Shown here: piece by piece, positions 21,001 to 24,000 of the stretch
Numbering within the stretch: the stretch's first letter is position 1
Layout of the letters: each line of letters begins with the position of its first letter
Virus record (IMG/VR): IMGVR_UViG_2713896798_000016
Origin: a virus
Lineage: Duplodnaviria > Heunggongvirae > Uroviricota > Caudoviricetes
Direction: 5' to 3' (one strand)
DNA length: 28,031 bases
Program-made: the position numbers

Positions 21001-24000
21001 GGTGTATTCATGAGGACGGAAGCCCACGGACAGCCCCCTGACCAGCCCGGTCTTAATGGCCGCCCAGGCCTCATCCAGCCTGGCAGCCAGTTGCGATGGC
21101 ATATCCGGCACGGGCTTCGCCAGTGTTGCCGTGATTTCCAGCCCTTCGCTGACCCGGCGCACCGTACACTGCCCCACCGGGCGGGAATGGTCATGCTGCC
21201 AGAGAAACGGGATCGCACTGCCAAACTCCGCGCCCTCCGGCTCCAGGATGTCACCATCCCGATCCGGAGAAGGCGTTGACGCAATCCCGGTGATCACCCG
21301 CTCATCCTCACTGAAGGATTTCACCGTCAGCAGGGAGCAGGCCCGTTTAAGAGTCACATCAGCCTCCTGAAAATAAAAAAACCGCCGCAGCGGTCCATGA
21401 TGGTTACAGGGTGAACAGGGTTATATGAAAAAAACCGCATATTCTTTCTTTTTCGGCTCCGGATTCAGGGACATCAGGGATACCGCATTGAAGAGCGCCA
21501 TCAGCGGGTCAATTTTCCCCCGTCCGCTGGCCTGTTTGGTAATAAGGATGGCGTTACCTTTCGGCTCCACCCGGGCATTGCCAACGCACCAGGCCATCAG
21601 TGGCTGACCACCATGCACCAGCACTCCCTCAGCCAGTTTGCGCTCGGTGGTTTTTATGGCCCCGCCCAGCTTCCAGCCCTGGCTTATCCCCACAACAATT
21701 CCGTCGGGGATCCCGGCTTCCGCCAGTGAATCCAGAATCTGCCCCACACCTGACGGGTCAATACCGATATGCTCCAGTAACTCAGCCTCATGAATACGAC
21801 GCACATACTCCGCCACTTCCGCCGTGTCATCCCCGACCCGACGGACAATCGTCATGTCTCCACAGGCCACAAAATCCTGAAACCGGGATGCCTCACTCTT
21901 CCGTCTGACCACCGCGGTTTCATGCGCCCAGGCATGGCCCCAGCCCAGCCATTCGCGGGTTTCCCTGTCACGGCCAATCACGTACATTCCCAGCAGATCA
22001 TCCAGGCCCCCGCCGTCAATCCCCACCGTCACCACATCAGCGCGCTGCAGGATATCGTCCAGGCTGACGCGCCTGCCCTGCTGCTCCCAGAAATCCGCAC
22101 CCGTCCAGCGGTCAGAACGCAGGGCAAGACCAATTTCCACATTGGCATGTTTTGACATGAAGCCACGAAATGCTTCCTCACCAGCCTCCCGGGCTTTACG
22201 GTACTCCCGGTACAGAAAAGCCTCATCCACCGAATAACCGAGATTCGGATTGACCATGGCGAGGTTTTCCATCAGCAGGTGAGCCCCGCTTTCCACCATT
22301 TCAGGAGGGTGTTCAAATATCACCGGCAGAAAGTGCGGATCATGAATTTTGCCGTCACGGACATCCCGGGCGTACTGCAGTTTCTGTCTGAACACCCCGG
22401 CTGGCGGCTCATTCGACTGGGTGGTTGTGTACACCACAAATCCTTCCGGACGGGAGGCAAGCCCGCCGATGGCTTCACGTAACATGTCTTCCGCTTTGTA
22501 CTGCTTGCCAAACAGCCACAGTTCATCAATCAGTGTCCCCACGGACTTGATACCGGACACCGTATTCGGATCGGCTGCCACCACCTTAAGGGTAGTGTCC
22601 GTCACCCTGTGGGTGATGGTCCGGATATGTGTCTGCACCTGGCAGAGGTCATCCAGATCATCGTCACGTCTGACCATATCCCGCGCAGGATTAAAGGCGT
22701 TAGCCGCCACCTCCACAGTCGGGGCCAGAATGGTGTAGCCCGCCGCCTGCCGCCAGTTCAGTAACAGCGCCGTCATCATGATCCCGGCAGCCAGCGTGGA
22801 CTTGCTGTTTTTTTTCGGGATAAGGATAAAAACTTCCTTGATATGGCGAACACCGGTCTGCGCATCGTAGGAGCCAAACAGGGCCGCCACCAGGTCAAAC
22901 ACCCACTGTGCGCAGGACTCCCCGAACGTCGGGCTGCCCGGTGCATCCACAATCCGCAGTTGTTTAAAAATCGCCAGTGCATGTGCAGCCTGATCCGGAT
23001 AAATCGGGGCCGGAATAATCGACAGCCCCTTTTTCAGGCGCTCTGCCCAGTCCGGGCAGGCCGTGCTCCACACAGGTATCATCCGTTGCCCTCATTATCA
23101 TTATTCACCACCAGTCGGGGTGGTGGTGGCACCGCAAAACGGTTAGCCGCTTTTTTCGCCGCGTCACCTTTTGCCGATTTTTTACCGGCATCCCCTTTTT
23201 TGTGGTGCGTGAACTGCGCCAGCTTATAAGCCGCATCCAGCGCCAGCCTGGGGTCGGTATTAATGTTCTCCACCAGAAGACGCCCCATCGCTTTCACCGG
23301 ATCGGGAAGACCGTCCTCCATATACTCAATACCAGGAGATATCACCACGGGCGGTGGCATCTCCGGATTTGTTTCGTCCGGCTGTGGTATTGCAGCCGCC
23401 TCACGGCGACGGGGTTTATCCTCCTGCTCTGATTTTTTCTGCCGGTAAACAGGAACCTCATCCACCTCCACCGTCTCGCACTGTTTACGGGCTATAAACG
23501 CAAGCACCTCCGGATCTTTTGCCAGCTGCGAGCCTTTAACCCTGGCTGTCTTCGCCGAATAACCGGCGGCAATGGCTGACGCTGTTTTGTTTTTCCCGGA
23601 CATGAGCGCCAGCGCAAATTTTCGTTTTTGCGTTGTCAGCACAGCCTCCTCCCGGGTCCAGAACGCACTCAGCCGGGTATGGTTCAGCCCATTTTTCCCG
23701 GCGTCTCATGCCGCAAATGTTAACTGCTGCCTGGTTAACATTTGCTGAAAAAGCCTGTTAACATTTTTTCCACGCAAGTAAGCGACTCGTCAGAACCGTA
23801 TTGATATTTACTGAGAGCTCAGATCAACTTTCCAGGGCAACAGATCGCGTACCCGGTTTGCCGGCCAGTCCTGGATATGTTCAATGACGTAACGCAGCCA
23901 CTTTTCTGGCTCCACATTGTTCAGACGGCATGTGCCGATCAGCGAGTACAACACCGCCGCATGTTCACCACCGCTGTCGGAACCCGCGAACATCCAGTTT

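Follow-up and report, generated by a model that had tools for sequence, protein, structure and literature searches.

GTTAAC repeats upstream of terS as the probable remnant of a cosB-like recognition region in a BP-4795-type prophage

Recognition regions for phage DNA packaging are a well-known kind of element, the described examples being cosB of phage lambda, the site for the small terminase subunit (TerS) in HK97 and pac of SPP1 and SF6. Lambda cosB consists of the R3-I1-R2-R1 sites, which are bound by gpNu1, the TerS of this phage, with a bend between the sites, and it anchors the large subunit, TerL, for accurate nicking (PMC4856287). The lambda system has 5' overhangs of 12 nt, a winged helix-turn-helix (HTH) TerS of the Nu1 type, R sequences of 16 bp and an IHF site, and it works without an HNH partner. 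In HK97 the order is HNH, cos, terS, terL, the overhang is 3' and 10 nt long, and a single 15-bp TerS site with a key G and an A-tract, at +15..+29 on the packaged side, is threaded through a TerS ring that lacks a defined HTH (PMC11331095); its HNH endonuclease is gp74. SPP1 and SF6 are Bacillus headful (pac) packagers, and here the TerS protein G1P binds multiple sites flanking the cleavage site (pacL/pacR). We analysed three copies of a GTTAAC-containing repeat upstream of the small terminase gene terS in the IMG/VR virus record IMGVR_UViG_2713896798_000016, a stretch of 28,031 bp which is called the window in the following.

Judged by sequence comparison, these copies of AAATGTTAAC/GTTAACATTT are probably the terS-proximal part of a cosB-like cos recognition region, belonging to a BP-4795-type lambdoid prophage of the Shiga toxin (Stx) family, and TerS would be the protein that binds them. 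This reading is carried directly by where the sites lie with respect to a mapped genome end, by the constraint on their sequence and by a distance from the nick which is fixed family-wide. In the window itself the three repeats are an orphaned relic: the region is cut at +95, counted from the nick of intact relatives (+1 being the first base after the overhang), and the nick, the nick-proximal sites and the gene for an HNH endonuclease are gone. The three remaining sites are the following.

23713..23724: site 1, GCAAATGTTAAC, left arm of an inverted repeat, equal to +148..+157 from the cos nick in intact relatives (position read from locus L083)
23734..23745: site 2, GTTAACATTTGC, right arm of the inverted repeat, equal to +129..+138 from the nick
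23757..23769: site 3, GTTAACATTT plus a T run, direct copy of site 2, equal to +106..+115 from the nick

Exact copies of the 10-mer GTTAACATTT are located at 23715-23724 (minus strand), 23734-23743 (plus strand) and 23757-23766 (plus strand), all within 52 bp, and there is no further exact copy in the window, nor any additional site when one mismatch is allowed. From shuffled sequences one would expect 0.03 exact matches per whole window, and three copies occurred in 0 of 100 shuffles; repeat and dyad are thus present beyond chance. The two inverted copies described in the initial annotation, GCAAATGTTAAC and GTTAACATTTGC, are indeed 9 nt apart, and their arms, which are 100% complementary, are even longer than noted there, 12 nt each (23713-23724 and 23734-23745). 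The third, direct copy was likewise seen correctly, with a start-to-start distance of 23 bp to site 2; however, 11 nt (23767-23777) and not 12 separate its 10-mer from the start of the neighbouring insertion sequence (IS) at 23778. From the GTG start of terS the repeats lie 73-124 bp upstream, in line with the approximately 70-130 bp given before. Sites 2 and 3 together also make up a sigma-70-like match at 23735-23764 of the plus strand (TTAACA, 18 nt, TAACAT; 9/12; TG before the -10), which is antisense to terS and points towards the IS; it is probably a by-product of the motif sequence.

Window positions 19079-23777 are 99.8% identical to the Stx phage BP-4795. The terS, terL, capsid-protease and portal genes reach 99.8-100% DNA identity, and terS with its upstream sequence up to the IS reaches 100%; about 90 further Stx-type phage records share this latter segment at 93-99% identity, as do prophages in 1253 of 5426 complete E. 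coli genomes. In these genomes it occupies 2966 places, and a query restricted to the cos region yields 1243 of the 5426 (about 23%), at 2944 places, often in several copies and with up to 7-8 copies per genome. These counts are essentially 1:1, giving no evidence for satellites or plasmids which have the cos region but lack terS. The lysis genes of BP-4795 and JLK-2012 are followed by a small divergent gene, the gene for an HNH endonuclease, about 290 bp of non-coding DNA, terS and terL, an arrangement which is the HK97-type packaging module; the HNH gene upstream of cos and terS is present in BP-4795, JLK-2012, FSL SP-016 and most genomic relatives. No cos region is annotated in any RefSeq record inspected.

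The initial annotation had pointed to intact relatives and to phage genome ends as comparisons by which to check its reading. None of the 94 phage records found by BLAST ends in the cos region, all of them being prophage-style with internal matches, and the mapped end came from the literature together with direct reading of one record. The Stx1 phage Lys8385Vzw had been induced and sequenced by Zhang et al., and PhageTerm gave 3' cohesive ends with a 10-nt cos sequence CGCCCCCCCT at the genome end (PMC7946995). Its record MT225100, which is collinear with BP-4795, ends with ...GGACACCGCCCCCCCT and begins with CTCACGCAGAGAAAAAATTCCC..., in agreement with the reported 10-nt 3' ends, and the left end of the virion DNA starts CTCACGCAGAG.... 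The packaging system is of the cos type, not pac. In Lys8385Vzw, GTTAAC starts at +34, +42, +110, +133 and +148, and the GTG of terS is at +230. Since the sites extend from +34 to +157, all five are located between the nick and terS, on the side which is packaged first. An array adjoining the nick on the packaged side thus exists in the intact relatives rather than in the window itself. Of the small-terminase recognition site that had been suspected (cosB- or pac-like), the cosB-like version gains support from this position and from the fixed distance to the nick discussed below, and the pac version falls.

Past the point at which the window breaks off, BP-4795 has the two more sites, which overlap in the perfect palindrome GTTAACATGTTAAC (+34..+47) and are followed by a G/C-rich stretch and the stop codon of the HNH gene. 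About 90 Stx-type phage records have this HNH-terS intergenic region as well, including the pair of overlapping sites. The three distal sites are held by a 182-bp segment (L083, 48-229), which in comparison with all other relatives is inserted in the BP-4795 lineage, between ATGTTAAC (+40..+47) and the start GTGCTGAC (+230). The same segment has T tracts which begin at +62, +71, +79 and +91; their spacing, approximately in phase with the helix, suggests an intrinsic bend. About 40-55 bp upstream of the nick there is, furthermore, a G7-G9 run which is inversely complementary to the C7 run of the 3' overhang and differs in length between haplotypes (L001 about 4833-4847 and 4794-4803; L084 1400-1454), and one IMG/VR haplotype has a mosaic boundary exactly at this run, with the HNH gene swapped for unrelated DNA.

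Within the E. coli group, 69 distinct haplotypes were compared from the nick to terS: 1 of 44 motif columns is variable, versus 56 of 185 columns outside the motif (Fisher p = 2e-5). If only variants present in at least two haplotypes are counted, the ratio becomes 0/44 versus 26/185 (p = 0.006), and common polymorphisms are found directly beside the 10-mers. The motif thus appears to be more constrained than the surrounding non-coding DNA, although the haplotypes are related and the test is therefore supportive, not conclusive.

The placement of the motif relative to the nick was followed in loci with TerS homologues of 28-49% identity, taken from bacterial genomes (Atlantibacter, Kluyvera, Enterobacter, Erwinia, Pantoea, Serratia, Rouxiella, Citrobacter, Proteus, Buttiauxella and others) and IMG/VR, plus the Salmonella phage FSL SP-016. 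Nearly all of these distant relatives share the conserved core GGACACCGCGCCCCCT|CTCACGCACAGAAAAAATTCCC. About 34 bp past the inferred nick they have GT(A/T)AAC-AT-GTTAAC, the second half of which is formed by the first terS codons, ATG TTA ACA; a second subgroup has the element GTTAA(A/C)..ATGGCTTTAAC instead. Among 64 unique cos segments, matches to GT[AT]AA[CA] cluster at -34 (26 segments), +34 (30), +35/+36 (12) and +41/+42 (43). In most relatives ATGTTAAC at +40..+47 is the start codon region of terS. In several lineages, however, this start is displaced: to +230 in the BP-4795 group, to +62 in L102 and L168/L170, +63 in L169, +74 in L121, +76 in L104 and +95 in L173. With L105 as an exception, the motif in lineages with a displaced start stays at +33..+36 from the nick. 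Some of them have arrays of their own, namely three GTTAAA in L169, two AAAAGTTACAC in L121, two GTTAAC in L104 and, farther out at +64 and +75, two copies of ATAGTTAACA in L173. The choice of the second codon fits into this picture. Where terS begins with Met-Leu-Thr and its start overlaps the +42 site (roughly 27 unique relatives), Leu-2 is always encoded by TTA, whereas in three lineages of the same type with a moved start it is CTG or CTA, which argues for a constraint at the level of DNA rather than of coding. Together these comparisons show a motif that appears to be constrained as DNA and to be tied to the nick instead of the start codon. It is the nick-proximal sites which hold their position in divergent relatives; the three distal ones left in the window are confined to the BP-4795 lineage.

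In 26 of the 64 unique relatives (L086-L104, L123-L150), GTAAAC is also found at -34 (GTTAAC in L100), mirroring the site at +34; members of the E. coli group have a degenerate version here, GTAAAAAAC or GAAAAAAAC. By analogy to pacL and pacR of SPP1, the nick may therefore lie between putative recognition sites.

How the locus compares with the known systems can be stated on this basis. As in lambda, an array of repeated sites lies between the nick and the terS gene, the intact order being nick, site pair, T-tract spacer, three sites and terS. Different from lambda are the 3' overhang of 10 nt, the Terminase_2-type TerS, the GTTAAC core and the adjacent HNH gene, and the window in addition has no nick site (cosN). 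With HK97, the intact relatives have in common the gene order, the length and polarity of the overhang and a TerS site on the packaged side, but instead of one site there are multiple dyad and direct copies of GTTAAC, the first at +34, and TerS is of the Terminase_2 HTH type. The closest TerS relatives with solved DNA-binding domains are those of the SPP1/SF6 kind (2CMP and 4ZC3, both SF6 G1P, plus 3ZQP), and GTAAAC at -34 and +34 resembles their cleavage-flanking sites; unlike these pac phages, the system here is cos-type and has a sharply defined repeated motif. Lys8385Vzw and BP-4795 (Marienburgvirus) have the same cos sequence, but intact, whereas the window copy is cut at +95 by an ISCro1 element; for them the 10-nt overhang has been reported, the GTTAAC array not.

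Read from right to left on the minus strand, the window has a P4-type integrase (28031-26766), an IS66-family element, the repeats, terS, terL, a prohead protease-capsid fusion and the portal gene, followed by tail genes. The features next to the repeats on the side of the terminase genes are these.

23646..23653, minus strand: ribosome-binding site of terS, GGGAGGAG, read directly from the sequence
23079..23642, minus strand: terS, small terminase, 187 aa, GTG start (plus-strand 23640-23642), DNA 100% identical to BP-4795
21421..23082, minus strand: terL, large terminase, 553 aa, with TerL ATPase and nuclease domains

Residues 2-57 of TerS match the N-terminal HTH DNA-binding domain of the Terminase_2 family (Pfam PF03592, E = 1.7e-8, 35.7 bits at a cut-off of 26.1), the match spanning only positions 1-56 of the 141 in the profile. 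The best sequence matches in PDB, to the DNA-binding domain of SF6 G1P (4ZC3, 2CMP), are weak (E about 0.2-0.3). A single-sequence AlphaFold model, used solely as weak corroboration of the Pfam assignment owing to its low confidence (pLDDT 61.6), has a four-helix N-terminal domain and only one predicted helical hairpin, at residues 115-146; 2CMP and 4ZC3 are again its top two Foldseek matches (TM 0.67-0.69), at a non-significant E of about 1. The N-terminal domain, with AGYSxKTAxxKGSQLxKDPxV, is the conserved part of the TerS family, which matches the conservation of the DNA motif.

On the other side of the repeats, the prophage DNA ends abruptly.

23770..23777: last 8 bp of prophage DNA, CCACGCAA; the break point corresponds to +95 from the nick, and homology to all relatives stops at 23777
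23778..26476, minus strand: ISCro1 (IS66 family), with tnpA (26423-25746), tnpB (25746-25399) and tnpC (25379-23808)

The limits of ISCro1 were set by where matches to hundreds of other copies start and stop; the element opens with GTAAGCG at 23778, and its ends are GTAAGCGACTCG... and ...GAGCCGGTTAC. An 8-bp target-site duplication is absent, the flanks CCACGCAA (23770-23777) and GCTTGTAC (26477-26484) being different, and hence this is not a simple insertion. Moreover, the two flanks stem from two different loci: the left one is phage cos DNA, and the right one corresponds to sequence next to the integrase of a tRNA-associated island, with 99% identity to the intB region of K-12 (near an integrase and IS2). 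The missing duplication and the mismatched flanks imply an IS-mediated deletion, an inversion or a recombination between two ISCro1 copies. The junction between the array and ISCro1 is present in none of the complete E. coli genomes of the collection, where the best match begins at the IS end. AST217 was considered as a case of the same junction and rejected, because its ISCro1 is near a similar integrase, but at tRNA-Phe and among other IS debris. In one IMG/VR relative (among L003-L082; locus 4820-5561), homology stops within terL at window position 21324 and ISCro1 follows, 99.9% identical to 26476-25735; ISCro1 has inserted there independently, into the terL of a related prophage.

As homology to every relative stops at the end of ISCro1, the window is without the nick, positions +1 to +94, the two nick-proximal sites, the G run, the HNH gene and all phage DNA upstream of it, and everything from +95 onward is kept. 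Indeed, the overhang CGCCCCCCCT is absent from the window even if one mismatch is allowed, and no homologue of the HNH endonuclease was detected in it (best tblastn E = 0.35). A truncation of the cos region by the IS had been suspected from the window alone, and it is real: no functional cosN adjoins the three-site array, which is thereby orphaned. The prophage is defective in a second, independent way, since its tail tape-measure gene is split (7863-9491 and 11948-13645, minus strand) by a second IS66-family element with tnpA, tnpB and tnpC (9545-11961, plus strand).

Other explanations for the repeats have to be weighed against a recognition array. One could regard them as functionless relics of a duplicated ancestral terS start (ATG TTA AC, for Met-Leu-Thr), left behind when the 182-bp insertion or duplication moved the start downstream. 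Historically this is plausible, given that ATGTTAAC serves as the start region in most relatives and that together with the present start GTGCTGAC it bounds the insertion of BP-4795; the +42 site even shares 13 nt, ATGTTAACTGGCT, with site 3 in many haplotypes. Yet the copies are abruptly dissimilar beyond 10-13 nt, and one of them has the opposite orientation, features typical of binding sites and not of duplication scars. Motif columns are invariant where adjacent columns vary, GTTAA(C) is kept at +33..+36 where this is non-coding, and independent lineages (L169, L121, L173, L104) own arrays with different flanks. Therefore, we consider such relics an unlikely explanation. Likewise, another packaging or host protein, such as the HNH endonuclease, TerL, IHF or Fis, could bind the sites. 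They lie in the cos region beside the HNH gene in the relatives, a T-tract-rich spacer separates their two clusters there, and lambda cosB includes an IHF site and a bend (PMC4856287). However, the arrangement as dyad and repeats fits an HTH oligomer, and one IMG/VR haplotype keeps cos and all five sites although unrelated sequence replaces the HNH gene immediately upstream. TerS is, besides, the known specificity factor in lambda, HK97 and SPP1/SF6, and the motif is presumably unlike the IHF consensus. A protein other than TerS is thus quite improbable.

An effect at the RNA level is conceivable for the 12-bp inverted repeat, which in the 5' leader of terS within the late transcript could form a hairpin affecting translation or mRNA stability, and the minimum-free-energy fold of the leader does include a perfect 12-bp stem with a 9-nt loop. 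But this fold has a z-score of only -1.84, with 11 of 200 shuffles folding as well, and the stem is AT-rich and lacks a U tract, so that it is not a terminator; neither were terminator-like sites, intrinsic or attenuator, found anywhere in the intact intergenic region. The stem has 0 variation among the haplotypes and hence offers no covariation signal to assess. As a hairpin would also leave the third copy, the two nick-proximal copies and the family-wide position at a fixed distance from the nick unexplained, we regard it as very unlikely. Finally, the initial annotation had offered a late-promoter operator as an alternative, in which case the repeats would bind the regulator of a promoter that drives the packaging and head genes. 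The dyad-symmetric 12-mer looks operator-like, and the promoter-like match made of sites 2 and 3 (TTAACA-18-TAACAT, 9/12; L001 4657-4686) is the one such match present. This match is antisense, though, and faces away from terS, a consensus scan of the intact intergenic region gave no promoter-like site on the sense strand, and across the family the motif follows the cos nick, not a promoter. The late operon of lambdoid phages is transcribed from pR', far upstream, via Q antitermination. A late promoter or operator was rejected for these reasons and has only a marginal probability.

Several points also weigh against a cosB-like array. With 95-100% conservation of the whole intergenic region in E. 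coli, the constraint test has limited power, and the relatives are not independent samples. No papers came up when the literature was searched for GTTAAC together with small terminase and cos. The three sites of the window are specific to the BP-4795 lineage, and the pair that is conserved family-wide is the one deleted here; the distal three could thus be accessory or dispensable. Site spacings of 8, 68, 23 and 15 bp (the last two centre to centre) show no clean helical phasing, and we therefore propose no geometric model for them. In HK97, the only phage with HNH-assisted cos cleavage for which a structure has been solved, TerS lacks a defined DNA-binding domain and a single 15-bp site is used (PMC11331095).

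If the repeats are nevertheless part of a cosB-like array, the intact region, on the minus strand of the window, would be arranged as HNH gene, G run, cos nick CGCCCCCCCT, palindrome GTTAACATGTTAAC at +34..+47, T-tract-rich spacer, three copies at +106..+157 and terS at +230. The N-terminal HTH domains of an oligomeric TerS of the Terminase_2 type would bind the GTTAAC sites, with the three lineage-specific distal ones perhaps contributing, and the bound TerS would position TerL, helped by the HNH protein, for cutting at the nick about 34 bp away. Packaging would then start towards terS. In the window, ISCro1 and the associated rearrangement have taken the nick side and left three sites as a non-functional half, which makes the prophage remnant uncuttable and unpackageable from here.

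A more general scheme can be put forward tentatively. Terminase_2-type TerS proteins of HNH-assisted 3'-cos phages across the Enterobacterales could possibly use a short GTTAA(C) element at -34, +34 and +42, whose downstream dyad usually overlaps the terS start, while the BP-4795/Stx lineage might have acquired a bipartite cosB through the 182-bp insertion, with three extra sites and a bent T-tract spacer. If true, this expansion may tune packaging specificity among co-resident related prophages of Stx-producing E. coli, of which there are up to 7-8 copies per genome.

For the specific GTTAAC motif and its arrangement we found no description in this widespread phage group. The prophage of the window is packaging-dead: besides the cos nick, the proximal recognition sites and the HNH endonuclease, it has lost its entire early and late control region, and it can no longer be mobilised as a phage despite intact terS, terL, capsid and portal genes. 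Its cos region, on the other hand, is common to many Stx-converting phages besides about 23% of the complete E. coli genomes. A defined recognition motif would help in predicting which prophages are packageable, in reading PhageTerm data and in the design of cos-based transduction tools, and it would help to ask how co-resident Stx prophages keep or share their packaging specificity.

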